Origin: Dehalococcoidia bacterium
Lineage (GTDB): Bacteria; Chloroflexota; Dehalococcoidia; Bin125
Reading direction: 5' to 3'
DNA length: 64,000 bases
Assembly: GCA_022822375.1 (NCBI GenBank)
Contig: JAJEBU010000126.1
Span: forward strand, 68,659-132,658
The first letter of the stretch is position 1. Every line of letters begins with the position of its first letter. Shown piece after piece: positions 7,010 through 55,961 of the stretch. Both the position numbers and the translations under genes were made by a program. The notes under the pieces were generated by a model. The model worked only from the letters and a program-made list of their open reading frames with translations. It did not search any database and was not told where the DNA came from.

Positions 7010-7088
7010 TGGTGGGCGATACTGGACTTGAACCAGTGACCTCTGCGATGTCAACGCAGCGCTCTAGCCAACTGAGCTAACCGCCCGC
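7010..7088 (-). tRNA. tRNA-Val (anticodon GAC), CCA encoded
   Basis: Reverse complement reads GCGGGCGGTTAGCTCAGTTGGCTAGAGCGCTGCGTTGACATCGCAGAGGTCACTGGTTCAAGTCCAGTATCGCCCACCA. D-arm GCTC/GAGC, anticodon stem CTGCG/CGCAG with loop TTGACAT, T-loop GGTTCAAGTCC, 3' CCA. Confidence 0.85.
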
Positions 7089-7465
7089 ACCGGGCTGCCG
7101 ACGCGGCGTGTATCGACGACGCCGGCTGTTTGTCATCGTATGCCTCGCAGTTCCGCCTGGTCAACGCGCGCCGCCGCCGTCGGTCGCGGCCTGACGAAGA
7201 CGTCTGCGGTAAGATCAGTGTCAACTCGTTGACGTTGTGCGCTGCGTTGGCTAGCTTGCGCCAACGACGTCAGACAGAACCGACCATCGGAGTCGAAGTG
7301 GGCCAAGGCACCTTGCGATCATCTGCAGAGCTGGGCAGCGTGCGGTCAGAGCGTGCGGCGCATGAGCGGTCGCCTTCGACTGTGAGTGAGACTGCGAGTG
7401 TCCGCGCCCGTGTACCATTGGGAGACGCGCTACTGCCGTTGGCACGGCGCGAGACCACCGGTCGC

Positions 7466-7541
<76 letters not shown>

Positions 7542-7615
7542 ACGACAGGTTCGCGAGCGAGGCGGCGCTTCGCTCGGAGCAGATTCTCCACGGGCCGCAG
7601 CGCTCGTCATCCCGC

Positions 7616-7700
7616 GGGGAAGTGTCGGAACTGGCAGACGAGCACGATTTAGGATCGTGTGCCGCAAGGCGTAGGAGTTCGAGTCTCCTCTTCCCCACCA
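7616..7700 (+). tRNA. tRNA-Leu (anticodon TAG), long variable arm, CCA encoded
   Basis: GGGGAAGTGTCGGAACTGGCAGACGAGCACGATTTAGGATCGTGTGCCGCAAGGCGTAGGAGTTCGAGTCTCCTCTTCCCCACCA. Acceptor GGGGAAG/CTTCCCC, anticodon stem CACGA/TCGTG with loop TTTAGGA, class II variable arm, T-loop TTCGAGT. Confidence 0.8.
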
Positions 7701-12044: not shown

Positions 12045-13433
12045 TCAATCGGCCGACGTGGGCACGACCTCGGTGTCGTCGGCCCGCTCGAGTTCCTGGT
12101 CCGCCTCGTCTGCCTCTTCTGCCTCGTCCTCTTGCGACACCTCGAGCACGCCGGCAGTGTCCGCGATGGACTGCCGAATGTCGTTCAGCGCCTCCGGATC
12201 GTCCGACGCCTCGACGGCGAAGCACACGAGTTCGTACAGCGCCTCTGCCGGGATCAGCGCATAACCGAAGGTCTCGCAGGCGTTGATCAGCGTCCGTGGG
12301 AACGGTTCGCGGCGGATGCGCGGGTCGGTCTCGCGGAATCCATTGGCCACGATGATGCCCTGCGGGCGAGCGTTGCGGCGCAGGAACTGCTCCTCGATCC
12401 GCTGCTGCAACGTCAGGTAGAGGCGATCCGTCACCGCTCCCGTCGCCGACGCCAGTTCCACCAGCGCGGTGTCCGATCCGTTGCGCAGCTCCAGCCCGCT
12501 CTCCGTGCGGTTGATGCCGTAGCCCAGCACGCGGAAGGCGTCCTCGACGACATCGCGGAAGGCGGCGTTCTGGCTCTGCCAGAGCATCCGCTGGAAGCGG
12601 GTCGTGTCGAGCAGCATCGACTCCGCCTCAGCCACTCGCCGTTGCGCGTTCTTCAGCGCTTGCTCCGCCTCCGTCAGGTCGTCGCGCGCCGCGGCGCCGT
12701 CGACCGTGTCATAACGCCGCACCCAGACAGGCGCCGACGCCGCGTCAGGGTCTTCGAGCAGCCGCTCAATCATCTCCAACAGCGACGCCGAGAAGTGCTT
12801 GCGCTGGGTCGCGGCCAGCTGATCCGGTGGCGGCAGCGCGATCACGCGTCCCGCGCCGACGCGGAACTCCGCCGCGACCGCCGCCCCGCCGATCGAGCGG
12901 CCGATCACCGCTCCATCGCTCTCCGACGGCAAGTCCAGGATTGCGCGGTAGCGGATGCGTCCCGCGAGATCGTCCAGCAAGCCGCTCGCTGGGTGGTGCG
13001 GATCGGTCGGCCGCGCATCTTTGCCGTCGGCCGGTCGCAGCGTCGGCCAGCGGAATGGGTCGCCTGGCGGAGCAGGGATGATCGAGTACCGATCGAGGCC
13101 GGCAAAGGCGGCGACGCCGGAGTGGCGTACGTTCGGATAGAGAAACAGCACGAGCAGGCCGCCGCGCTCCATCAGCCGCGTCAGCTCCCATTGACGCTGC
13201 AGCAGCAACTCGCCGAGTCCGAAGTGGAACGCTCCTGATTCGCCCGCGCCGACAGGGCGTCCGTCTGTCGATTTGGCAGCGAGTGTGCTCGCCGCGATAC
13301 CCTCGATCTGCTCGGAAACTGCCTGTGGATCGATGATGCACGCGTCGTAATCGAAGATGGACGGCGCGTTGGCGATCGAGTGGTTATCGACGCTCGGACT
13401 GGGGACCGGGCATCCGATGGAGATGATGCGCAC
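12045..13433 (-). CDS. hypothetical protein, 462 aa, with central coiled-coil, nuclease-like C-terminal region and highly acidic tail
   Basis: Balanced composition, unlike the Arg-rich antisense ORF on +. No motif I can assign confidently. C-terminal block ...GIIVANGFRETDPRIRREPFPRTLINACETFGYALIPAEALYELVCFAVE followed by an EDEAEEADEADQELERADD tail. Ends 1 nt after the lepA stop. Confidence 0.6.
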   Translation of the reverse strand: MRIISIGCPVPSPSVDNHSIANAPSIFDYDACIIDPQAVSEQIEGIAASTLAAKSTDGRPVGAGESGAFHFGLGELLLQRQWELTRLMERGGLLVLFLYPNVRHSGVAAFAGLDRYSIIPAPPGDPFRWPTLRPADGKDARPTDPHHPASGLLDDLAGRIRYRAILDLPSESDGAVIGRSIGGAAVAAEFRVGAGRVIALPPPDQLAATQRKHFSASLLEMIERLLEDPDAASAPVWVRRYDTVDGAAARDDLTEAEQALKNAQRRVAEAESMLLDTTRFQRMLWQSQNAAFRDVVEDAFRVLGYGINRTESGLELRNGSDTALVELASATGAVTDRLYLTLQQRIEEQFLRRNARPQGIIVANGFRETDPRIRREPFPRTLINACETFGYALIPAEALYELVCFAVEASDDPEALNDIRQSIADTAGVLEVSQEDEAEEADEADQELERADDTEVVPTSAD

Positions 13434-13659
13434 TGGCCGCTCCTTCTTCGTCCGCGTTCATCGACCCTGCGGACACGGTATCGGCTGAGTGTACCTGTCG
13501 CGCGGCTGCGCTATGTCAGCCCTCTGCTCGCCGCTGCCGGTGATAGCATGGGATCGGTCGTGCTAGATGGGGAGCTAGCGGTGCCCTGTACCCGCAATCC
13601 GCTCTAGCGGGGTTGAATTCCTGGGTTGAGGGCGGTGACATGAGAACTACCGACGCCAA

Positions 13660-13800
13660 GTAGTGTTGAAATCTGGGTCCCGCGCGGCGGCCCGCCGTGA
13701 ACCCCGTCAGGTCCGAGAGGAAGCAGCGGTAAGCGGTTGTCAGGTCGGGTGACGCGGGAGTGCCTGGGTGGAGCCGGCTAGCGAAGGCAAGCTCATGCAA
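13660..13800 (+). ncRNA. ffs: Signal recognition particle RNA (4.5S/ffs-type; boundaries approximate)
   Basis: Contains the universally conserved SRP RNA domain IV sequence GUCAGGUCCGAGAGGAAGCAGC (GNRA tetraloop GAGA) at ~13705-13727. The following ...GGUGACGCGGGAGUGCCUGGGUG is colinear with E. coli 4.5S ...GAUGACGCGUGUGCCGGGAUG, and GUGAAC precedes the motif. It lies in a 424-bp gap with only short spurious ORFs. Confidence 0.65.
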
Positions 13801-13856
13801 CCGTTCGATCCTGGGTGCACGGCCGATACCGCGCCACAACGTCACGGACATTCCCG

Positions 13857-25077: not shown

Positions 25078-26127
25078 ATGAGCCTGGTGCGAGGCTGGTC
25101 ACAACGGCGGCTCATATTGATCGGCGGAATCGCCGCTGCAGGTGTCGCGTTGATCGCCATCGTGCTCTGGCAGGTTGGACTGTTCGACAGCGCACCACCG
25201 CCGGCCAGCCTGGAATCGGCAGTGGAGTCGTTGCGCGATCAACAGGAAACGCAGCAGTCAACTGAGCAGACTCAGACGCAAACGCAAGTTAGCGCCGCGC
25301 CACAGGCATCGGGACAGCAAGAGCAAGCCGCAGCGCGGCAGTCCGAGGACGCTTCGGCCGCGTCCGACGGCTACGGAGGCTCCAGCACAAGTGCCGAACC
25401 ACAAGCAGCGGAAGATGCTCAGCCATCGGCCGACACCGCGATGGCCTATGAGGAACCGCAGCAGGCTGAATCTGAGCAGCCCGAGCCGCCGGCCGAGCAG
25501 GAACAACAGGCACAGCCTGCCGAGCCGCAGCAAACCGCTCAGCCGTCAGACGCCGGGGACCAGGACAGCCCTGTCTCCGCCCCGCTCGCAGACCTGGCCG
25601 GGACGTGGACCCTGTCCGAACAGGGTGAGTCGTTCGTCGGCTACCGCATTGGCGAGGAGCTGGCCCAGATCGGCACGACGACCGCTGTGGGGCGGACCAG
25701 CGAGATCGTGGCGAGCCTCGTGTTCGACGGTTCAGCGATCACGACTGTCGAGATCACCGCTGACCTGCGCACGCTGCGCAGCGACCAGAGCTTCCGCGAC
25801 GGCGCATTGCGCACTCGCGGCCTCGAGACCGACACGTATCCGTGGGGCATCTTCAGATTGACCGAGCCGATTCCCATCGACGCGCTGCCCAGGGGTGACG
25901 GACCGCTCAGTGCGACGGCCGCCGGCACGCTCGAAGTCCACGGCGTGACCAACAACGTCACGATCGCGCTCGAAGGCCGCTACGTCGATGGCTTCGTTGT
26001 GGTGGTCGGCTCGACGGACTTCGTCCTGGCCGACTACGACATCGAGAAACCGACGGGCTTCCGCGTCCTGTCGATCGAGGATGCGGGGGTCATGGAGTTC
26101 CAGTTGGTACTGGAACGGACGGAATGA
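25078..26127 (+). CDS. Membrane-anchored YceI-family (polyisoprenoid-binding-like) protein with Q/E/A-rich disordered linker
   Basis: N-terminal TM helix, ~150 aa low-complexity acidic/Gln-rich segment, then a YceI-like beta-barrel (ADLAGTWTLS...VEITADLRTLRSDQSFRD...GLETDTYPW...TLEVHGVTN). Confidence 0.7.
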   Translation: MSLVRGWSQRRLILIGGIAAAGVALIAIVLWQVGLFDSAPPPASLESAVESLRDQQETQQSTEQTQTQTQVSAAPQASGQQEQAAARQSEDASAASDGYGGSSTSAEPQAAEDAQPSADTAMAYEEPQQAESEQPEPPAEQEQQAQPAEPQQTAQPSDAGDQDSPVSAPLADLAGTWTLSEQGESFVGYRIGEELAQIGTTTAVGRTSEIVASLVFDGSAITTVEITADLRTLRSDQSFRDGALRTRGLETDTYPWGIFRLTEPIPIDALPRGDGPLSATAAGTLEVHGVTNNVTIALEGRYVDGFVVVVGSTDFVLADYDIEKPTGFRVLSIEDAGVMEFQLVLERTE

Positions 26128-29927: not shown

Positions 29928-30512
29928 CTACGAGACATCACCGACCCAGCGCCAGTAGTGGTCAAAGGCCGCGATCGTCAGCGCGTGCGTGATCAGCTTG
30001 TCGTTGAGCAGGCCCGGAATCTCGTCCAGCGGCACGGTCGTGACTTCGATGGCTTCGCTGCCCGTGCCGACCTGATGGTCAGCCGCGACGTTGCGGGTCA
30101 CGTCCTGCGCGAGGAACGACCAGCAGCGGTTCTCTTGCAGCGCCGGGTTGGGATGTACCCAGCCGAGCTCGATCGCCTCGGAGCTGGCGTAGCCAGATTC
30201 CTCGAACATCTCACGGAGCGCCGCCTGTTTCGCGTCCTCGCCGGGGTCGACGATGCCGCCAGGAATCTCCAGCGTCAGCTCTCGCGTGCCGTGCCGGAAC
30301 TGGTTGACGAACACGACCTCGCGCTCAGGCGTGATCGGCATGATGTTGACCCAGTCGGGGAACTCGAAGATGAAAAAGCGGTGATCGCGGCCCGACGTGG
30401 GGTGACGAGCGATGTCGCGCCGCAGCCTGAAGAACTTGAAGTCCTCCACGATCTCGGAGCTCTGCCGTCGCCAGTCATCGATACCGCCGCTGCCACGTGA
30501 TGCGCTGCTCAT
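29928..30512 (-). CDS. NUDIX hydrolase (ADP-ribose pyrophosphatase-like)
   Basis: Nudix box GGIVDPGEDAKQAALREMFEESG. Confidence 0.82.
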   Translation of the reverse strand: MSSASRGSGGIDDWRRQSSEIVEDFKFFRLRRDIARHPTSGRDHRFFIFEFPDWVNIMPITPEREVVFVNQFRHGTRELTLEIPGGIVDPGEDAKQAALREMFEESGYASSEAIELGWVHPNPALQENRCWSFLAQDVTRNVAADHQVGTGSEAIEVTTVPLDEIPGLLNDKLITHALTIAAFDHYWRWVGDVS

Positions 30513-31336
30513 GTGACGGCGTTGAACACTTTGGCGTACGTGTCGATCTTCAGGAACGAGTCCAGGCCGGCGTCGTGGAACTGGACGTCGAGATTTTCAA
30601 GCAGCGTCGACTTGTAACGGTCAACGTCGATGCCCAGGTCGGCCACGTCCTGCTTGATCCTCCGCAGTCCGAGCGCCACCGCGCTGGCCAGCAGCAGCTG
30701 GCTTTGCCAGACATAGAAGCGGCCCGCGGCTGGCAGTCGATCGATCAACTGCGGCAGGATCGTGTGCAGGAAGTTCACGTGCCGCACTTCGTCTCGCAGA
30801 ATCAGCCGGAAGATCTGCTTGGCGAGCGGATCCACATCATCCAGGTCCAGCGCCTGCTGCAGGAAGAGCGCCGCGAAGTTCTCGCTGAACAACGTCGACG
30901 TCAGCCAGTTCTCGACCCGGTAGAAGCCCCAGGACGCCATACCGCCGAAGCGCTCAATCAGGAAGCGCTCCGGCGTCGACAGGTAGCCGTGCCCTCCAAC
31001 CTCCGTCAGATAGCGGTCGAGCGCGTAGACGTGGCGGGCCTCGTCCTGGCACTGCGCGGCGAGGTACAGGTTGAGCGCTGGATCGCGCAGCTGATGTGTG
31101 GCCTGGCTCATCATCACCTGGATCGTGTCCAGCCCCATGACCTCGAGCCCGAGGAAGACGTTCATCATCCGCAGCCAGGCCGCGCGTCGCGCGGCGGGAA
31201 TCGTCGACCCCGCCGCCCAGTCGACATCGCGGTCAGCGTTCCAGAGCCGGTCTCCCTGCTGTCGAAACAACGCGCGGAACGCGTCGGCCTGCTCGGCCGA
31301 GCGATGCGGACGGACAGCGTTGGGCGAGCGGCGCAT
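30509..31336 (-). CDS. Ferritin-like diiron-carboxylate protein (AurF/MiaE/DUF455-like oxygenase fold)
   Basis: Two ExxH motifs (CQDEARHVYAL and LRDEVRHVNFL) with upstream Glu residues at the spacing of diiron carboxylate four-helix-bundle enzymes. Its stop overlaps the NUDIX start (ATGA). Confidence 0.6.
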   Translation of the reverse strand: MRRSPNAVRPHRSAEQADAFRALFRQQGDRLWNADRDVDWAAGSTIPAARRAAWLRMMNVFLGLEVMGLDTIQVMMSQATHQLRDPALNLYLAAQCQDEARHVYALDRYLTEVGGHGYLSTPERFLIERFGGMASWGFYRVENWLTSTLFSENFAALFLQQALDLDDVDPLAKQIFRLILRDEVRHVNFLHTILPQLIDRLPAAGRFYVWQSQLLLASAVALGLRRIKQDVADLGIDVDRYKSTLLENLDVQFHDAGLDSFLKIDTYAKVFNAVT

Positions 31337-32335: not shown

Positions 32336-33268
32336 CTACTGTGGCGGTGGCGCTGTGACCTCGACCGATACGGCGATGATCCGCTCCGTGCCATAGACCG
32401 CGATCAGATCGAATGCGGCTGGGCTCAACTGCAGATCAGTGTTCGACGCTTCTGTCCCGCGTACGACCACGAGCGCCTCAGTGCCGACGACCGCCGCTTG
32501 TTCCTCATCGGTCAGCAGCGTGGCGCCTGGCAGACGCGTCAGACGCAGCGTCGTGCCAACTGGCCAGCGTGATGTGAAGACCGTCGCCGGCTCAGTGGGA
32601 TCGTAGGCCGCTCCGTCGCCGAGTTGGCGCGGAATGCCTGACGGAATCGGTTCCGCCGTGACCCGCTCGGCGGCGATCTCCGCGCCGTCGATCTGGGCCG
32701 GGACGACCGCCATATCGACGACCGTGGGCTGAATCTCCGAGACGGGGATGGACATCTCGGTGCTCTGCTGCTGCACAGACCCTGCTGTCGTCTCGGCTTG
32801 CTGCTCTTGCGCCACAGCCGCACCTTGCTCCGGGGCCGCTTGACGATCTTGCTCGGCAGACTCAGCCGCTGGCGATTCCTGTTCTTGCGACTGCGCTTCA
32901 GCGGTCTCAGGCGGTGTTGCCGCCGGTTCTGCTGCCGAGTCTGCGGCGGATTGTTCAGCCGCCCCGTCCTCGGCCGCCCCGTCCTCGGACGCCGCGGCGT
33001 CCGTCGCTGGCTCCGTCACGACCGCTGGCGAGTCGTCCTCCAGCAGTTCTGTGACTCCGAAGTAGACCGCGACCCCGATCCCGCCCAGGATGGCGAGCAC
33101 CGCCAGTCCGCTGATCATTCGCTTCAGCCTGGGGCCGATGAGTTGCCGCTCGTTGGGCAGCCGCAACCGCTCTCCGGAGTAGCGTCGGTAGTCGGCGGCG
33201 CCGCGCACGCGGATATGCGGGCTCGAGTAATCGCGCGGCCCGCCCTGATTCCGTGAGTACTGGCTCAT
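32336..33268 (-). CDS. Membrane-anchored protein with long acidic disordered region and C-terminal RlpA/DPBB-like domain (tentative)
   Basis: N-terminal cytoplasmic segment, one TM helix (LAVLAILGGIGVAVYFGV), ~120 aa Ala/Glu/Gln-rich low-complexity region, then a C-terminal ~100-aa block (...TLRLTRLPGATLL...ALVVVRGTEASNTDLQLSPAAFDLIA) weakly reminiscent of double-psi beta-barrel domains. Confidence 0.55.
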   Translation of the reverse strand: MSQYSRNQGGPRDYSSPHIRVRGAADYRRYSGERLRLPNERQLIGPRLKRMISGLAVLAILGGIGVAVYFGVTELLEDDSPAVVTEPATDAAASEDGAAEDGAAEQSAADSAAEPAATPPETAEAQSQEQESPAAESAEQDRQAAPEQGAAVAQEQQAETTAGSVQQQSTEMSIPVSEIQPTVVDMAVVPAQIDGAEIAAERVTAEPIPSGIPRQLGDGAAYDPTEPATVFTSRWPVGTTLRLTRLPGATLLTDEEQAAVVGTEALVVVRGTEASNTDLQLSPAAFDLIAVYGTERIIAVSVEVTAPPPQ

Positions 33269-35064: not shown

Positions 35065-35991
35065 TTAGGCCGAGTCTGTCGCGCCGGTTCGCCGGTACAC
35101 GTCGAGCGCCTGCGCGATCGCCGCGCGGACGCCCAGCACCGGCTCATATTCCAGCGCCACGCGCGCACGCGAGTCGTCGATCAGGTGCGGCCGCCCCGTC
35201 ACGTCGACGTAGCCGTCCACGCCTTCCGGCTCCGGCAGCACCCATCCCGACAGTCGCAGCGTCCACAGCGCCCGCGACGCGAGATACGGCGCACTCCAGA
35301 ATCTCGCTTCGACGCCTTGCAGCTGGCACGACTCGCGAGCCAGCTCGCCCCACGTCGTGTGTGCAGATGTGGCGTGAAACACGTGATCAACCGCCTCATC
35401 GGAATGGATCAACATCGCCCAGACGGCGCGGCCGAGGTCGGCGCCGGCGAGGATGGAGATCGGCGCCTCGCCGCCCGCGACGAGCGCCGCGCGAGGCCGC
35501 GAGGTGAAGTGGCGCAGCAGCTGGAGCATCTGCCCGCCGCCCTCGGCGATCACCGGCGCCGCGCGCAGGATTGAGAGCGGCACGCGGCGTCGATAGGTGC
35601 GCGCGGCTCGCTCCGCCGCGACGCGGCTCTGCAACGCCGGCCCCAAGGGTCTCGGTACCCAGCTTTCGCTGACTGGCCAGGGCGGCAGGCGGCGCCCATA
35701 CGTCTCGGTCGTCGAGACCATCAACACCTGTGCCAGGTCTCGTTGCCGGCACGCGTCAAGCAACGACGTCGTCGAATGCACGTTGGCCTCGGCGTAGATC
35801 GCGGCTGGATGGCCGGGATCCGTCAGCGAAGCGGCGTGGACGACGTGGGTCGCGCGGTCGAGCGCTGATTGCAGCGCATCTGCGCTCGTGACGTCGAACG
35901 GCATGACGTCGACGGCGTGCCGCTCAAGCTCGCGACGTACCGCGAGACCAACAGGCTGATCGGCGCCGCTCAGGGCGATGCGCATGTCCAT
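35065..35991 (-). CDS. NAD-dependent epimerase/dehydratase-family (extended SDR) protein, divergent member
   Basis: Length and overall pattern of the extended-SDR Rossmann family (MDMRIALSGADQPVGLAV...). The glycine-rich motif is degenerate. Confidence 0.45.
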   Translation of the reverse strand: MDMRIALSGADQPVGLAVRRELERHAVDVMPFDVTSADALQSALDRATHVVHAASLTDPGHPAAIYAEANVHSTTSLLDACRQRDLAQVLMVSTTETYGRRLPPWPVSESWVPRPLGPALQSRVAAERAARTYRRRVPLSILRAAPVIAEGGGQMLQLLRHFTSRPRAALVAGGEAPISILAGADLGRAVWAMLIHSDEAVDHVFHATSAHTTWGELARESCQLQGVEARFWSAPYLASRALWTLRLSGWVLPEPEGVDGYVDVTGRPHLIDDSRARVALEYEPVLGVRAAIAQALDVYRRTGATDSA

Positions 35992-36874: not shown

Positions 36875-38248
36875 TCAGTCCGGCCAGGTCCAGTCGATAC
36901 TGACCGCGCGCTGCAACGCGTCGAGCTGATAGCGCAGCGACGGATCCCAGAGCATGAAGCCGATCCCGCCGACCTCGGCGGTCGCTTCGATCTGTGCGTG
37001 AACGAAGTCCGCGTGGTAGGCCAGCCCGCGCGACTGGTAGTCGGTAAAGTCCTGTAGCCACGGACGAACCACTGCCGATCCGGGCTCGTCAATCAGTTCG
37101 ATCGTCGCCTGGACGTTTCGGCCGACCACCGCGCCGGGATGCGCGGGCGGATAGGCAAAGCCGAACGAGCCAGGCGTCCAACCGCTGGGATAAACCATCG
37201 GCGAGACGTAATCGAGATGCGGCGCGACGCCCGCCACCGACTGTCCGATGCCTTGGTCGTTGCCCGCCGTCGAGATGACACCAAAGGTGTCGAACGACAC
37301 CGCTAAGCCGACCTGATGCAAGGCGTCTCCGGCCTCCTGGGCAAATCTGTTGATCGTGGCGACCCGCTCGGCCTCGCTGAACTGGCTGCGTTCCAGCACG
37401 CTCTCGTATGGCAAGCGAACGTAGTCGTACTGAATTTCGTCGACGTAGCCAGCCGCGGCCATGCCGATTTCGATGTTGTAGCGGCGGGCCTCGAAGGAGA
37501 AGGGCGACGCCCAGCTGTTGCCGTTGCTGTCTCTGAATCGGCCGCCGCTGAGGTTGTGCAGAGAGTGCTGAGGGTGCCAGGCCGAGAACCAAGGGTCAAA
37601 GAACGTCACAATCCGACCGATGCGGTAGACGCCCTGCTCGCCCAGTTGCTCGAGGAAGCTGGTCGTTCTCGGGAAGGCGAACTGCGCGTCGGCCTTCATC
37701 ACGCGGGCAGTCTCGTTTGCGGCAAACGGGATGACCCGGCCGCCTTCGTCCTTCAGATCAACCACCACCGCGTTGATCAAGTCCCGCTCGATCAGGTCGC
37801 TGACGAAGTCCTGGACCTCCTGCTTCTCGATCTCAAGGAAGGGGACGAAGATCGCGCGCACCACGAGTTTGCGCAGCACGATCACCGATCGGTCTCGGTA
37901 GACCGGGCGCTGCACATTGTTGTAGCCCGGTTGCACGACGGTCAGTTGTCCAGTCCGCTCTTCCGCTGTGAACTCGAAGCGGCCGCTGGCGTCAGCGCGC
38001 ACCAGGCTGGTTCCAGTCGAGACGCGGGCGTGCGCCGCGGGCAGCAACCGCCCAGCCTTCCAGACGTAGACGCCACCGCTCAGCGGCGTGGTGAATGTGG
38101 TCGTTGACGAGGTGAGCGCTCGCAGCCCCGGCGCCCGATCAGACGCCGGGTCGTCGGCGGATACTCCGTGCAAGGCGCCCAGCGCGAACAGCGCCACAAC
38201 GGCCATCCCCAGAATCAGACTCCACAGCCTCGAGCGCGGGTCCAACAC
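36875..38248 (-). CDS. Secreted hypothetical protein, putative glycoside-hydrolase-like TIM-barrel (DUF4015-like)
   Basis: N-terminal signal/TM segment (LWSLILGMAVVALFALGALHG), then a ~400-aa domain with dispersed aromatic/acidic motifs (VVVDLKDEGGRV, YDYVRLPYES, FMLWDPS). Family assignment is tentative. Confidence 0.5.
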   Translation of the reverse strand: MLDPRSRLWSLILGMAVVALFALGALHGVSADDPASDRAPGLRALTSSTTTFTTPLSGGVYVWKAGRLLPAAHARVSTGTSLVRADASGRFEFTAEERTGQLTVVQPGYNNVQRPVYRDRSVIVLRKLVVRAIFVPFLEIEKQEVQDFVSDLIERDLINAVVVDLKDEGGRVIPFAANETARVMKADAQFAFPRTTSFLEQLGEQGVYRIGRIVTFFDPWFSAWHPQHSLHNLSGGRFRDSNGNSWASPFSFEARRYNIEIGMAAAGYVDEIQYDYVRLPYESVLERSQFSEAERVATINRFAQEAGDALHQVGLAVSFDTFGVISTAGNDQGIGQSVAGVAPHLDYVSPMVYPSGWTPGSFGFAYPPAHPGAVVGRNVQATIELIDEPGSAVVRPWLQDFTDYQSRGLAYHADFVHAQIEATAEVGGIGFMLWDPSLRYQLDALQRAVSIDWTWPD

Positions 38249-51015: not shown

Positions 51016-51067
51016 CGACCGCCGACCAACAGCGACGTCCGCGTTTGACACGCACTTGGAGAGTGGT

Positions 51068-52165
51068 ATGAGCCAGCGACCGCCCGATCCGATTCCGTTC
51101 CCCAGCGACCGCATCCAGGGCGGCGCACCGCCGCCGCAGGCGCCACAGCCGCCCGCTCAACCGTCGGGGCCCGTGATCTACTCAGCGTCGGGCCAACCGA
51201 TGCGACGGGTCAGGCCGCCGTCTGCGCCGCCGCCTCCAGCCCCGGTACCGCTCAACGCCGCACCTCCGCAGGCGGCCGGCGTTGGCGCCCCCGGCGGTCA
51301 GGAACCGGTCGGCTTGCACGGCCACATTGCCGCCGTGATCGACTCGACCGATGCGGACTTTGAGCGGGATGTGATCCAGCGATCACATGAGATGCCTGTG
51401 ATCGTCGACTGCTGGGCGCCGTGGTGCGGGCCGTGCCGCGTGCTGGGACCGATCCTCGAGAAGCTGGCCTACGAGCGCGACGGCCAGTTGCAGTTGGTCA
51501 AGGTCAACACCGATGAGAACCCGCAAGTCGCGCGGGCGTTGCAAGTGGAGGGCATCCCGGCCGTCTTCGCGTTCGCCGGCGGGCAGCTGGTCAACCGCTT
51601 TGTCGGCGCGTTGCCCGAGGAGCAGGTGCGAGCCTTCTTTGACTCGCTGATTCCCTCTGAAGCCGACATCAAGGCGGCAGAGGGCTACCGCATGATGCAG
51701 GAAAACCAGATTCCGATCGCGCGTCTGCATTTCGAGTCAGCGCTCGACGAGGATCCCAACCACGAGATGGCTGGCGTCGGTCTCGCTGCGATCCTGTCGC
51801 GTCTGGGCGAGACGGAGCGCGCCGCCGAGCTCGCTCGCCGCTGGCCCAACCATCCGTTGAGCAAGAGCGTGCTCACGTCAATGGAGCTCGCGGCGGCGCT
51901 GGACGGTCAGGACGCCGGCGCAGTCCGCGCGGCTGCGGCGTCTCACCCGACCGACGCGATGAGCCGCTATCGGCATGGCTGTCTGCTGGCCCTGGAGGGC
52001 CAGATGATGCAGGCGTTGGACGAGATGCTGGAGTCGGTGCGGCTGGATAAATCGGCCGGGGACGAGGCGGCGCGCAAGACGCTGCTCGGCATGTTCGCCA
52101 TGCTCGGCGAGAATGAGCCGGTCGTCGCGGAGTACCGCAAACGGCTGGGTCAGCTGCTTTTCTAG
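51068..52165 (+). CDS. Thioredoxin-domain protein with C-terminal TPR-like domain (YbbN/CnoX-like) and Pro-rich N-terminal extension
   Basis: Trx active site WAPWCGPC, then an alpha-helical TPR-like C-terminus. The ~90-aa N-terminus is Pro/Ala-rich. Confidence 0.82.
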   Translation: MSQRPPDPIPFPSDRIQGGAPPPQAPQPPAQPSGPVIYSASGQPMRRVRPPSAPPPPAPVPLNAAPPQAAGVGAPGGQEPVGLHGHIAAVIDSTDADFERDVIQRSHEMPVIVDCWAPWCGPCRVLGPILEKLAYERDGQLQLVKVNTDENPQVARALQVEGIPAVFAFAGGQLVNRFVGALPEEQVRAFFDSLIPSEADIKAAEGYRMMQENQIPIARLHFESALDEDPNHEMAGVGLAAILSRLGETERAAELARRWPNHPLSKSVLTSMELAAALDGQDAGAVRAAAASHPTDAMSRYRHGCLLALEGQMMQALDEMLESVRLDKSAGDEAARKTLLGMFAMLGENEPVVAEYRKRLGQLLF

Positions 52166-52588: not shown

Positions 52589-54166
52589 ATGCATCCTCCC
52601 ACGACATTCGCATTGCGCGATGCTGACGGCCGCGAGCGGCAGTTCCCGCCCGATGGTCCGGTGTTGCTCGCTCTGGTCAAAGAAGATTGCGACACCTGCA
52701 ATCTGACGCTGCCGCTGCTCGAGAAGGTCCATCAGGCCACCGAAGACGGCCTGGACGTGTGGGTCGCGGTGCAGAAGACCGACGACATCCCCGTCCTGAA
52801 GGAGCGGCACGGCCTGACCATGCCGCTGCTTGACGACGACGCGCTGGACCTGTCCTACGAGACCGACATCGACACCGTGCCGACGCTCTTCCTCTATGAC
52901 GAGCAGCAGAACTGCACGCTGCAGACCTTCGGCTTCGACCGTCACGAGTGGCGGGAGATCGCCGCGGAGTCAATGACGCTCGCCGGCCGTCCTGATGGCG
53001 ACACGCAGATCGAATGGGACGCCCTGCCTGTGCAGCGTCCAGGCTGCGGCGCTCGCAACTACGAGCCGGGCGTCTACGAGCGTCTGCAAGCGTTGAAGAG
53101 CGGCGATCTGCTCTCGCGCCTGGTCGATCTGGCCGCGTCCGACGACATCTACGAGTTTATGTACGAGCAGGGCTACACCGACGGCTTCCCGGTCGTACCG
53201 CCCACACGGGAGCGCGTCTGGAAGATGCTGCAAGGCACGCAGCGCGACCCGCAGGACGAAGTCGCCGTGATGCCGCCCAACCTGGCGCCGATCACGGTCG
53301 AGAAGATCGCCATCAACGCCGTCATGGCCGGCGCGAAGCCCGAGTATCTGCCCTCGATCATCACCCTCGTCGAGATCGCCTGCACAGAGACGTTCAACAT
53401 TCACGGCGTGCTCGCGACGACGATGGGCGCGACGCCGGTCGGCATCTTCAACGGTCCGATCCGTGACAGGATCGGGATGAACTACCTGCACGGCGCATTG
53501 GGCTCGGGCAATCGGGCCAACGCGTCGATTGGCCGCGCGCTGCGTCTCTGTGCGCGCAATGTCGGCGGCAGCCTGCCAGGCGGAACCGACCGCGCCACTC
53601 AGGGAGGCCCGCATCGCCTGACGATGAACTTTGCCGAGAATGAGGCTGCGAGCCCATGGGCATCGCTCGCGGTCGAGCGCGGTTTCGAGCCGACCGACGA
53701 TGTGGCCACCCTGATGGCGATGTCGGGCGGTCCCGCGACCGTCGCCGACGAACGAGCCCGCGACGGACGCGCCTTGGCCGGAACGCTGGCCGCGTCGATG
53801 TCTTGCATGCAAGATCCCAAATCGCCCATGGTCGACACATTGGTCGTGTTGTCGCCCGATCACGCGGGCATCTTCGGACGTTCAGGCTGGTCGAAAGATG
53901 ATGTGCGCGAGTGCATCATCGAGGAAACGTCGATCCCGCTGCACATGCGCCTGCGCTCGGACGACGCCGGTTGCGGTCTGCCGCCGAGCATCGTCGAACA
54001 GTTCGGCGGCGAGGCGGCGCTCGACATGCCGATCGCCAAGTTCCGCGACAAATCCAACATCATCCTCGTCGTCGCCGGTTCCTCGGCGGCGAAGTTCTCG
54101 ACCATTCTGGGCGGCTGGGCCGGCGGCGCATACTCGATGCCGGCGAGCAGCAAGATCGGCGTCTGA
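52589..54166 (+). CDS. Fusion protein: N-terminal thioredoxin-fold (TlpA/AhpC-like, CxxC = CDTC) domain + C-terminal uncharacterised ~370-aa domain X (paralog of 54813..55961)
   Basis: N-terminal ...RQFPPDGPVLLALVKEDCDTCNLTLPLLEKV... is a redox-active Trx-fold. The C-terminal domain carries DGFPVVPPTRERV, ITVEKIAINAVMAGAKPEY, GSGNRANASIGRALRL and NVGGSLPG motifs shared with the paralog. Confidence 0.8.
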   Translation: MHPPTTFALRDADGRERQFPPDGPVLLALVKEDCDTCNLTLPLLEKVHQATEDGLDVWVAVQKTDDIPVLKERHGLTMPLLDDDALDLSYETDIDTVPTLFLYDEQQNCTLQTFGFDRHEWREIAAESMTLAGRPDGDTQIEWDALPVQRPGCGARNYEPGVYERLQALKSGDLLSRLVDLAASDDIYEFMYEQGYTDGFPVVPPTRERVWKMLQGTQRDPQDEVAVMPPNLAPITVEKIAINAVMAGAKPEYLPSIITLVEIACTETFNIHGVLATTMGATPVGIFNGPIRDRIGMNYLHGALGSGNRANASIGRALRLCARNVGGSLPGGTDRATQGGPHRLTMNFAENEAASPWASLAVERGFEPTDDVATLMAMSGGPATVADERARDGRALAGTLAASMSCMQDPKSPMVDTLVVLSPDHAGIFGRSGWSKDDVRECIIEETSIPLHMRLRSDDAGCGLPPSIVEQFGGEAALDMPIAKFRDKSNIILVVAGSSAAKFSTILGGWAGGAYSMPASSKIGV

Positions 54167-54228
54167 CGCCGCAACACCGCGCAATGCGCGCCGCGACCCT
54201 GCAGTCGGCGCGTTGATGGAGAGGTCCC

Positions 54229-54759
54229 ATGGTTACGCAGATCCTCGACCCGACCGACGAACGAGTGCCGATCAAGCGATCCCTCACGCCGCGCCCAGAA
54301 GCGCTGCATGGGACGATCGCCCTGCTCGACATCTCCAAGCCGCGTGGCGACAAGTTCCTCGACCGACTCGAACAGCTGCTGCACGAGCGGGCGCCGGGCG
54401 TCGAGACCCGCCGCTTCATGAAGCCGACCGTCGCCAAGCCGGCGCCCGAGCCGATCAAACAAGCGATCCTGGAGGAATGCGACTTCGTCATCGAAGCGCT
54501 GGCTGATTGAGGATCCTGCACGACGTGCAGTGTGCACGACACCGTCTTCTTCGAACTGCAGGGCAAGCCCTCGGTCTTCGTCGCCACCTCTGAGTTCATC
54601 AAGGCCGCCAGCCACCAGGCCGAGCGGCTCGGACTCGAAGAGGTGCGGCGCGTCTTCATTCCGCATCCGATGCAGGACCGCACCGATGCAGAGATGCATG
54701 AACATGCCGAGCGCTTCGTAGACGAGATCCTCGACACCTTGATGGCGCCCGTCGAGTAA
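54229..54759 (+). CDS. UGSC-family selenoprotein (176 aa) with in-frame TGA = selenocysteine at 54508..54510
   Basis: ORFs 54229..54510 and 54532..54759 are in the same frame (both = 1 mod 3) and separated by one TGA. Read-through gives ...FVIEALAD-U-GSCTTCSVHDTVFFELQGKPSVF..., i.e. the eponymous U-G-S-C motif immediately followed by a second Cys pair (UxxCxxC). Coding-like composition continues past the TGA, and a hairpin follows it. Confidence 0.8.
54516..54538 (+). promoter_or_regulatory. Candidate bacterial SECIS hairpin(s) downstream of the Sec-UGA
   Basis: Overlapping perfect palindromes: CTGCAC-GAC-GTGCAG (54516-54530, begins 6 nt after UGA) and CGTGCA-GUG-UGCACG (54524-54538, begins 14 nt after UGA, apical loop GUG containing G and U as in bSECIS). 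Confidence 0.55.
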
Positions 54760-54812
54760 CGGCGAACGGCCTGCCGCCGTTCGAGCCTCCCGATCTGGAC
54801 AGAGGTCAGCCT

Positions 54813-55961
54813 GTGGCGTCCCAGCAATCGAGTGACTATGCGGCGAGCTCGCCGACGGTGGCCAACCCGCATGCGCGACTGATCGACATCGCCGACCACG
54901 ACGATGTCCATGAGTTCATGTTCGACCAGGGCATCACCGACGGTCTGCCGGTGGTGCCGCCGACGCGCGAACGGGTCGACCGCATGCTTGCGGCGTCGCC
55001 CGAGCATTGGAACGATCCCAGCGCAGAGATCGCGAAGCTGCCACCGAACTATGGACCGCTCACGGTGGAGAAGGCTGCCATCAACGCCGTCATGGCGGGC
55101 TGTGCGCCGTCCTTCTTCCCGACCGTGCTGGCGTCGATCGAGGCAGCGGCCGATCCGCGCTTTCCACTTCACGGTTCGATCGCCACGACGGCAGGCCTGG
55201 CCCCGTTGATGCTCGTCAACGGACCCGTCCGCGAGCAGATTGGGATGAACTGGGGCCTCAACGCGCTTGGCCAGGGCAACCGCGCCAACTCGACACTGGG
55301 GCGCGCGTTGCGGCTGATGCTGCGCAACGTCGGCGGCGCGGTGCCCGGCGAGATCGAGCAAGCCATCCAGGGCGGCGGACACAAGTGGACCCTCTCCTAC
55401 GCCGAAGACGAGGACACATCGCCGTGGGACCCCTTCCACGTCGAGCACGGCTGGAATCCTGATGACAGCGTGGTCTCGCTGATGGCCACGACCGGCGGGC
55501 CGCGCGTCTGCATCGATCAGACCAGCCGCACGGCGCGGGCGCTGACCGGATCCATCGCCATGGCATTTCAACAGGTGGTCAAGCCGCGCGGACAGGTCTC
55601 GCCGACAATGTTCGTCGTCTCGCCCGAGCACGCTGACGTCTACCGTGCGGATGGTTGGACCAAAGAGAACATCCGCGAGGCGATCATGGAGTTCACTGCT
55701 CTGCCGCTGCGCGATCGCCTGGCCTCACCAACACTGGGCGGCGGTATCAACGAGTACGCGCCACAGCAGTACGGCCTGACGGAAGAGCAGCTCGACCTCC
55801 CGATGTCTAAAGTGGCGCATCCGTCGTTCATCCAAATCACCGTCGCCGGCAGCCATGCGGGGAAATGGACGAGCATCTACCAGGGCATCTTCGGCGACGG
55901 CGATCCGACGCAGCCGCCGCCCGGCCCGTTCGTCCCGCCCGCTGCCCGTGTGCGCTCCTGA
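54813..55961 (+). CDS. Uncharacterised domain-X protein (382 aa), paralog of the C-terminal domain of 52589..54166
   Basis: Shares FMFDQGITDGLPVVPPTRERVDRML, LTVEKAAINAVMAGCAPSF, GQGNRANSTLGRALRLMLRNVGGAVPG and the C-terminal ...ITVAGSHAGKW block with the upstream fusion protein. GTG start. Confidence 0.78.
   Translation: MASQQSSDYAASSPTVANPHARLIDIADHDDVHEFMFDQGITDGLPVVPPTRERVDRMLAASPEHWNDPSAEIAKLPPNYGPLTVEKAAINAVMAGCAPSFFPTVLASIEAAADPRFPLHGSIATTAGLAPLMLVNGPVREQIGMNWGLNALGQGNRANSTLGRALRLMLRNVGGAVPGEIEQAIQGGGHKWTLSYAEDEDTSPWDPFHVEHGWNPDDSVVSLMATTGGPRVCIDQTSRTARALTGSIAMAFQQVVKPRGQVSPTMFVVSPEHADVYRADGWTKENIREAIMEFTALPLRDRLASPTLGGGINEYAPQQYGLTEEQLDLPMSKVAHPSFIQITVAGSHAGKWTSIYQGIFGDGDPTQPPPGPFVPPAARVRS

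Follow-up and report, generated by a model that had tools for sequence, protein, structure and literature searches.

A UGSC-family gene with a UGA codon probably recoded as selenocysteine, and its conserved partner gene, in a Dehalococcoidia bacterium

Results

Organization of the UGSC locus

The subject of this work is a stretch of DNA of 64,000 nucleotides (nt) from a Dehalococcoidia bacterium (contig JAJEBU010000126.1 of assembly GCA_022822375.1, positions 68,659 to 132,658 of the forward strand), referred to below as the window, with a GC content of 66%, and, within it, the region 54229-54759. In the list of open reading frames (ORFs) of the window, this region appears as two separate ORFs of the same frame, 54229..54510 (93 aa, ATG start) and 54532..54759 (75 aa, GTG start). 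Results of our analysis indicate that the region is one gene of the UGSC family, in which the internal UGA codon 54508-54510 is recoded as selenocysteine (Sec); on the basis of sequence comparison we assign to this reading a probability of about 0.9. The features of the gene are as follows.

54229..54759, plus strand: complete coding sequence of the probable UGSC-family selenoprotein (one frame, profile matches, the same architecture in 80/80 orthologous loci)
54218..54224, plus strand: Shine-Dalgarno-like GGAGAGG, 4 nt 5' of the ATG, read from the sequence
54508..54510, plus strand: in-frame UGA, the predicted codon of U94 (TGA in 81/81 aligned sequences; Cys at this column in the Cys forms)
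54508..54528, plus strand: U-G-S-C-T-T-C (UxxCxxC), a redox or metal motif, present in all 80 loci
54535-54540, plus strand: invariant H103-D104, 3' of the UxxCxxC motif

Direct translation from the start codon ATG 54229 gives 177 codons in one frame, with TGA 54508-54510 as the single internal stop and TAA 54757-54759 as the terminal one. The joined product comprises 176 residues including Sec94 (about 19.9 kDa). The translation across the TGA reads ...EECDFVIEALAD-*-GSCTTCSVHDTVFFELQGKPS..., where the part preceding the TGA ends with FVIEALAD, and the peptide around the Sec codon is ALAD-U-GSCTTCSVHDTVFFELQGK. The first-pass annotation, prepared from the sequence of the window, had described both the two same-frame ORFs parted by a lone TGA and the motif U-G-S-C followed by T-T-C that appears when this TGA is read as Sec. 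The former description agrees with the sequence, the ORF list and the translation, and the latter motif is seen in the translation and recurs as UGSCTTC in each of the 80 loci.

TGA is the commonest stop codon among the large ORFs of the window (22 of 38), including the gene directly upstream of the UGSC gene, and therefore a genome-wide reassignment of TGA can be dismissed. In a scan of the window for further selenoprotein genes with in-frame TGA, based on the GC content of third codon positions, only the UGSC gene was convincing.

Assignment to the UGSC family

In profile searches, run with U written as C in the joined protein, residues 29-171 aligned with positions 4-146 of the 147 positions of NCBIfam NF041046, "UGSC family (seleno)protein" (154.2 bits vs. 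the curated cutoff of 125), and residues 4-172 aligned with positions 1-171 of the 172 positions of Pfam PF24696, "UGSC" (151.8 bits vs. the cutoff of 25; E = 2.7e-44), so that the single PF24696 model spans both half-ORFs across the TGA. By both curated thresholds the joined product is a UGSC-family (seleno)protein, as had been proposed from the motif, and a plain member of a catalogued family. It shares with the family exemplar, the "UGSC-containing protein" of Zhang and Gladyshev from Hyphomonas neptunium (ABI76733.1), the full-length profile match, the U-G-S-C at the Sec/Cys column, the size of about 176 aa and the single-domain architecture, and with the family as a whole the large excess of Sec over Cys forms and the aquatic or environmental bacterial hosts (PMC2398784, PMC1976440, PMC13188914). 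No material difference from the family was found.

The family is of an already known kind, present in the literature since 2007-2008 and represented by curated NCBIfam and Pfam models. The claim of the first-pass annotation that it was first listed in surveys of marine metagenomes holds for the 2008 Global Ocean Sampling (GOS) survey, in which it was tabulated (PMC2398784), but the first mention dates from 2007 and concerns Hyphomonas neptunium together with metagenomes (PMC1976440). A 2016 count found UGSC in 26 bacterial genomes (PMC5029168); the family was also reported in algae (PMC7539508) and is among the most abundant selenoprotein families of aquatic metagenomes (PMC2398784, PMC13188914). 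According to a 2026 review, its function is still uncharacterised, with no biochemical evidence on any member (PMC13188914).

A search of 5.8 billion proteins yielded 97 homologues, about 90 of which are 96-100 aa long and end with ...FVIEALAD. These entries of about 96 aa are gene calls truncated at the Sec TGA. The C-terminal half used as a query found only fragments of 75-85 aa that begin at the internal GTG. P0001 and P0002 are full-length Cys forms with the sequence ALAD-C-GSCTSC, which is common to all four of the rare Cys forms (P0001, P0002, P0300 and P0366) in which a Cys is aligned to the U column; the column proposed earlier as a U/C position is therefore one. None of the homologues ends at the TGA as a genuine protein. 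A HMMER search over 1.84 billion cluster representatives gave 613 matches at E <= 1e-3, of which the 150 best were considered; one was already in hand, and among the remaining 149 representative clusters 98 stop exactly at xLAD, two are Cys forms, and 49 have neither the xLAD end nor the Cys motif and look like partial or frameshifted fragments. The proportion of 98 clusters ending at xLAD to 2 Cys forms agrees with the excess of Sec forms in the GOS metagenomes (255 Sec vs. 21 Cys; PMC2398784).

Conservation of the in-frame TGA and of the downstream half

When prokaryotic genomes were scanned, with each species represented by one genome, 484 loci encoding a relative were found, and the best 80 of them were fetched. 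The nearest relatives among these 80 come from Dehalococcoidia metagenome-assembled genomes (MAGs; 94-97% amino-acid identity), and the others from Tepidiformaceae and further Chloroflexota, Gamma- and Alphaproteobacteria (including a cultured Sulfitobacter), Binatia and Myxococcota. The homologous codon is TGA in 80/80 loci, from at least five phyla (81/81 including the window). This constancy and the single profile that aligns across the TGA go far beyond what chance would produce. In all 80 loci the TGA is followed by GSCTTCS[V/L/M]HD and by an ORF of 78-92 sense codons; U94, C97, C100, H103 and D104 are invariant, and so are, at the protein level, the seven codons from the TGA to GTG 54532.

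The downstream half differs from that of the closest relative, L001, by 17 synonymous and 0 non-synonymous codon differences, and the counts for the seven closest relatives are 17/0, 15/2, 18/5, 19/2, 15/1, 24/5 and 22/2 (synonymous/non-synonymous). This excess of synonymous differences indicates that the region downstream of the TGA is translated and under purifying selection. The protein-like character of the sequence past the TGA, remarked on in the first-pass annotation, is thus supported by comparison, and the downstream half is kept in related genomes, namely in all 80 loci.

The N-terminal fragment is found in identical form on 12 public contigs, in which the gene is always called as ORFs of 93 aa and 75 aa, each of them matching PF24696. 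Loci L081-L084 (e.g., GCA_022824765.1, JAJDZG010000083.1) carry the identical gene mis-split into 93 and 75 aa, and such splitting is systematic for the UGSC family in all databases considered.

A conserved hairpin downstream of the UGA codon

Two overlapping perfect palindromes lie 3' of the TGA, CTGCAC-GAC-GTGCAG (54516-54530) and CGTGCA-GTG-TGCACG (54524-54538). The corresponding RNA elements, which are mutually exclusive, are listed below.

54524-54529 with 54533-54538, plus strand: predicted selenocysteine insertion sequence (SECIS) hairpin, stem CGUGCA/UGCACG, apical loop GUG 54530-54532 (pairing, covariation, frozen codons, register with fdhF)
54516..54530, plus strand: alternative hairpin CUGCAC-GAC-GUGCAG (minimum-energy fold of the window sequence alone)

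The two were compared in an alignment of 81 sequences (A2), 75 of them distinct. The helix of 54524-54538 is paired in 100% of the 75 distinct sequences. Its sole variable pair (27-39) is GC in 54, GU in 19 and AU in 2 of them, with no mismatch, and in L026 and L069 both sides of this pair are changed; the same helix was found independently by RNAalifold. The first palindrome is broken in 22 of the 75 sequences (the outer pair is open in 20 and pair 23-27 in 2) without any compensatory change, and was rejected as a SECIS for this reason. It is probably incidental to the codons of Cys-Thr-Thr-Cys. Of the nested palindromes that the first-pass annotation had put forward as a possible SECIS, comparison thus favours 54524-54538 and speaks against 54516-54530. 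A long-range lower stem CCUG/CAGG of the window minimum-energy fold was also considered; by eye it is not kept in relatives such as L016.

Synonymous sites provide what is, in the sequence comparison, the strongest SECIS signal. Of the codons that follow the UGA, +5 is ACG in 79/81 sequences, +6 is TGC in 81/81, +7 is AGT in 81/81 and +8 is GTG in 50/50, and codon +8 is still NTG where it specifies Leu or Met. In contrast, the Thr at +4 uses four codons, the Cys at +3 is TGC in 47 and TGT in 34 sequences, and AGT occurs in only 1-2 sequences at other Ser columns. Since the synonymous freeze is confined to codons +5 to +8, the constraint at the RNA level is confined to the hairpin.

The E. coli fdhF SECIS was taken for comparison as a 47-mer, which matches fdhF at 100% identity in 5419 E. 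coli genomes. In the loop of this SECIS, G23 and U24 are the bases needed for SelB recognition. When both are numbered from the U of UGA, the window element shares with the fdhF SECIS the loop bases G23 and U24 and the 3' arm U26-G-C-A-C30, and in both cases the hairpin lies directly 3' of the UGA within the coding sequence. The window hairpin differs in that its loop has 3 nt (GUN) vs. 4 (GGUC) in fdhF, in its 6-bp stem without the bulged U17 and in that no conserved extended lower helix was seen.

Support for selenocysteine decoding and points against it

Several observations weigh against Sec decoding or against the hairpin at 54524-54538 as its signal. No tRNA-Sec is present in the window, whose three tRNAs are ordinary ones, and none of the 20 largest window ORFs (among them LepA, ThrRS, AccC, FtsY, the pyruvate dehydrogenase subunits E2 and E3, DinG, Pol IV and LipA) is selA, selB or selD; in 64 kb of a genome of about 3 Mb, both results are uninformative either way. 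A scan of the whole window at the Rfam gathering thresholds gave a signal recognition particle (SRP) RNA and three tRNAs and no SECIS family. Single-sequence folding of the region following the UGA gave z of about 0 relative to shuffled sequences, and the minimum-energy fold of the window sequence alone is the first palindrome; thermodynamics alone thus cannot identify a SECIS this short. Covariation concerns one variable pair, as the five other pairs are invariant, partly owing to the invariant TCSxH peptide. Sec decoding in the lineage of the window is supported indirectly, by the selection that acts, in very close relatives, on the hairpin as well as on the region downstream of the TGA.

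An alternative would be a pseudogene disrupted by a nonsense mutation, or two small genes of 93 aa and 75 aa, the form in which all public assemblies show the locus. The two-ORF split made by gene callers in the 12 public contigs and in about 100 database clusters could be taken in its favour, as could the lack of visible Sec machinery in the window. The TGA is, however, found at the same codon in 80/80 genomes across phyla, the seven codons leading from it to GTG 54532 are invariant in the protein, the downstream half evolves under purifying selection (17 synonymous and 0 non-synonymous differences from L001), the Cys forms are continuous proteins, and one profile covers both halves. The conserved TGA together with the selected downstream half effectively refutes both versions of this alternative, which we regard as extremely improbable. 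The earlier interpretation as one selenoprotein, and not a pseudogene, is upheld by the same observations. As judged by comparison, the region is a single gene with the UGA at the column equivalent to Cys, a conserved SECIS-type hairpin and a translated downstream half.

Predicted fold of UGSC proteins

The structure was modelled with AlphaFold for the Cys homologue P0001, which is 51% identical to the window protein, on the basis of 30 aligned sequences. The model (predicted local distance difference test score, pLDDT, 89.1; predicted template modelling score, pTM, 0.84) shows a strictly alternating (beta-alpha)5 domain, in which Cys95, the counterpart of U94, is placed between the strand 87-93 and the helix 96-111, whose first turns carry C98, C101 and H104. 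The predicted fold of UGSC is thus flavodoxin- or Rossmann-like and not thioredoxin-like. The mixed sheet of a thioredoxin fold, which had been guessed in the literature, is not seen in the P0001 model. A redox C/U-x-x-C at the N-terminus of a helix is present in it, but this feature is common to several folds and does not define membership in any of them. A search of PDB sequences with UGSC gave no match.

Partner gene, core-only paralogs and natural fusions

The neighbours of the UGSC gene in the window are the following.

52589..54166, plus strand: partner gene, 525 aa, with an N-terminal TlpA/ResA-like thioredoxin-fold domain (C34-x-x-C37) and a core of about 350 aa
54763..54783, plus strand: 8-bp perfect inverted repeat CGAACGGC / GCCGTTCG with a 5-nt loop, read from the sequence
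54813..55961, plus strand: core-only paralog, 382 aa, without the thioredoxin domain (46% identity over 341 aa to the partner core)

The partner gene ends 62 nt before the UGSC gene in the window, and in 66/80 loci, in all sampled phyla, it is the immediate upstream neighbour of UGSC, with the same orientation. No other gene is conserved around UGSC in the 80 loci. A promoter and terminator scan gave no such site between the partner, UGSC and the downstream paralog in the window. The inverted repeat at 54763-54783, which starts 4 nt past the UGSC stop TAA and is devoid of a T-run, was not called by the terminator scan.

More than 6800 homologues of the partner are present in databases, and their names, "TlpA family protein disulfide reductase" or "redoxin domain-containing protein", stem solely from the N-terminal domain. 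For the core of about 350 aa, searches of Pfam, NCBIfam and PDB sequences gave no match at a threshold as loose as E = 10. The core contains no conserved Cys and is marked by the motifs TDGLPVVPPTxERV, VEKxAINAVMAG, HGxxATT, GNRANxxxGRAxRL and AGKFS. As compared with TlpA, ResA and DsbE, the partner shows no signal peptide or membrane anchor evident from the reading of its N-terminus, and its thioredoxin-fold domain is fused to the conserved core, which the TlpA name ignores.

Core-only paralogs downstream of UGSC are confined to the Dehalococcoidia clade of the window (L001-L009 and L033). Two such paralogs, at about +1500 to +2540 from the TGA, are present in L001, L003, L004 and L033, vs. 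one in the window. In L021 and L041 the flanking genes, encoding a thioredoxin-tetratricopeptide repeat (TPR) protein, a methyltransferase and a transporter of the major facilitator superfamily (MFS), are kept, and there is neither a partner nor a core gene. The absence of the core in these two loci despite the retained flanks, together with the varying number of paralogs, indicates that core genes are gained and lost in a stable neighbourhood.

Fourteen representative clusters are N-terminally extended UGSC proteins that contain the AGKF motif of the core and are natural core::UGSC fusions. One of them, P0320 (487 aa), is 36% identical over 371 aa to the 382-aa paralog (E = 1e-59) and ends with ...CALAD. 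These fusions (P0320, P0354, P0336, P0361 and 10 further clusters) have the core at the N-terminus, lack the thioredoxin domain and have all been cut at the Sec codon by gene callers. Possibly, they are of eukaryotic, namely algal, origin, as UGSC was reported in algae (PMC7539508). They probably correspond to the "UGSC/Unknown_1 fusion" mentioned in the 2008 paper. P0065 and P0069 were considered as partner::UGSC fusions and discarded; the C-terminus of the partner on the P0065 contig looks frameshifted. The adjacency of the two genes and the existence of fusions provide strong evidence that the partner and UGSC work together.

A protein of 369 aa that combines a thioredoxin domain (WCGPC) with TPR is encoded at 51056-52165, two genes upstream of UGSC, with a terminator-like hairpin (52142-52156) near the end of its gene. 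In L021 and L041 its homologue is the nearest upstream gene on the same strand, and an opposite-strand ORF of about 112 aa may intervene. This thioredoxin-TPR protein could be an alternative redox partner.

Other features of the window

The SRP RNA and the tRNAs of the window are ordinary housekeeping ones: the bacterial large SRP RNA at 13558-13822 (RF01854, 169.6 bits) and, clustered at 7010-7700, tRNA-Val(GAC), tRNA-Lys(CTT) and tRNA-Leu(TAG). Six ORFs of 275-462 aa have a good coding signature and no NCBIfam match at 1e-5 or 1e-10:

12045-13433, minus strand: ORF without NCBIfam match
25078-26127, plus strand: ORF without NCBIfam match
36875-38248, minus strand: ORF without NCBIfam match
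32336-33268, minus strand: ORF without NCBIfam match
35065-35991, minus strand: ORF without NCBIfam match
30509-31336, minus strand: ORF without NCBIfam match

Discussion

The comparison of the window gene with its relatives suggests a decoding scheme that follows the analogy with fdhF. The UGA would be decoded as Sec because the 15-nt hairpin 54524-54538 sits 13 nt downstream of it and would recruit SelB-GTP-Sec-tRNASec to the ribosome. The product would be a cytoplasmic selenoprotein of 176 residues.

As to the function of this product, a redox relay between U94/C97 of UGSC and the CxxC of the partner thioredoxin domain is a working proposal to which we give somewhat less than even odds. Sec94, located at the N-terminus of helix 3 of the predicted flavodoxin/Rossmann-like (beta-alpha)5 fold, would act as a nucleophile. 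U94-x-x-C97 would form a selenenylsulfide/selenol-thiol couple in which C100 could step in as the resolving residue, and this couple would exchange electrons with the CxxC in the TlpA-like domain of the 525-aa partner, which would be co-transcribed with UGSC. The core of the partner may serve as a substrate-binding or catalytic module, in which case UGSC and the partner would constitute a two-component selenol/thiol oxidoreductase. A more far-reaching version of this scheme, in which UGSC provides a widespread two-component enzyme with its selenium-bearing redox subunit and Sec94 attacks a substrate held by the core, following the logic of GrdB/PrdB in an unrelated sequence, is in our opinion possible but rather doubtful. 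Two observations count against these mechanistic proposals: about 12 of the 80 loci have no adjoining partner, and the invariant set of U, C, C, H and D would fit the ligation of a metal or cluster equally well.

The latter point leads to an alternative in which UxxCxxC-x2-HD is a set of metal or iron-sulfur ligands, Sec being one of them, and UGSC is an electron-transfer or metal-handling subunit of the partner. The CxxCxxC spacing is classical for cluster binding, U94, C97, C100, H103 and D104 do not vary in the 80 loci, and the partner core, having no conserved Cys, could need an external redox centre; weaker support comes from the neighbours Mmp7 and McrC, which bind clusters via Cys and His (PMC12176620). 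However, a conserved fourth Cys ligand is lacking, most UxxC selenoproteins are treated in surveys as thiol-oxidoreductase-like (PMC2398784, PMC13188914), and an exchange between dithiol and selenenylsulfide would accord with the obligate pairing of UGSC with a CxxC domain of thioredoxin fold. We consider the metal-binding function unlikely. A closer analogy to the Sec subunits GrdB and PrdB of glycine and D-proline reductases (PF07355) also has to be considered. As a miniature analogue of these subunits, UGSC would use its Sec to attack a substrate bound by the core and to break a C-N or C-X bond in it; C97/C100 would then resolve the selenoether or selenenylsulfide so formed, and the thioredoxin domain would re-reduce it. 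The UxxCxxC spacing of UGSC (U94-G-S-C97-T-T-C100) is also that of GrdB, which works together with a larger subunit that is not a selenoprotein and with a reductant of the thioredoxin type (PMC13188914). The linkage or fusion of UGSC to a large core that is not a redox domain is obligate, and the prevalence of Sec over Cys in the clusters (98 to 2) and in the GOS data (255 to 21, PMC2398784) would be expected of a catalytic nucleophile. The likeness is nevertheless one of motif and logic only, as there is no sequence similarity and the partner family is different: neither the window protein nor P0001 or P0002 matches PF07355 (GRDB) even at E <= 10, the partner has no match to PF09338 or to any other model, no pyruvoyl-forming cleavage motif was identified, and the hosts (Dehalococcoidia MAGs, aerobic marine Proteobacteria, and algae according to PMC7539508) are not Stickland fermenters. 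We consider this strict analogy distinctly improbable.

As a member of a catalogued family the window gene is unremarkable, and an up-to-date annotation pipeline would name it automatically. Our results nevertheless correct the existing annotation, as public assemblies, including GCA_022824765.1, show two hypothetical ORFs in its place, and in databases about 100 clusters stop short at the Sec codon. The linkage of UGSC to the partner, by adjacency and by fusion, and the predicted non-thioredoxin fold offer a concrete route to the biochemistry of UGSC proteins and, together with the definition of the putative SECIS, make the function of the family experimentally approachable. If UGSC is indeed the selenium-bearing subunit of a two-component enzyme, it would represent a new class of selenoenzymes.

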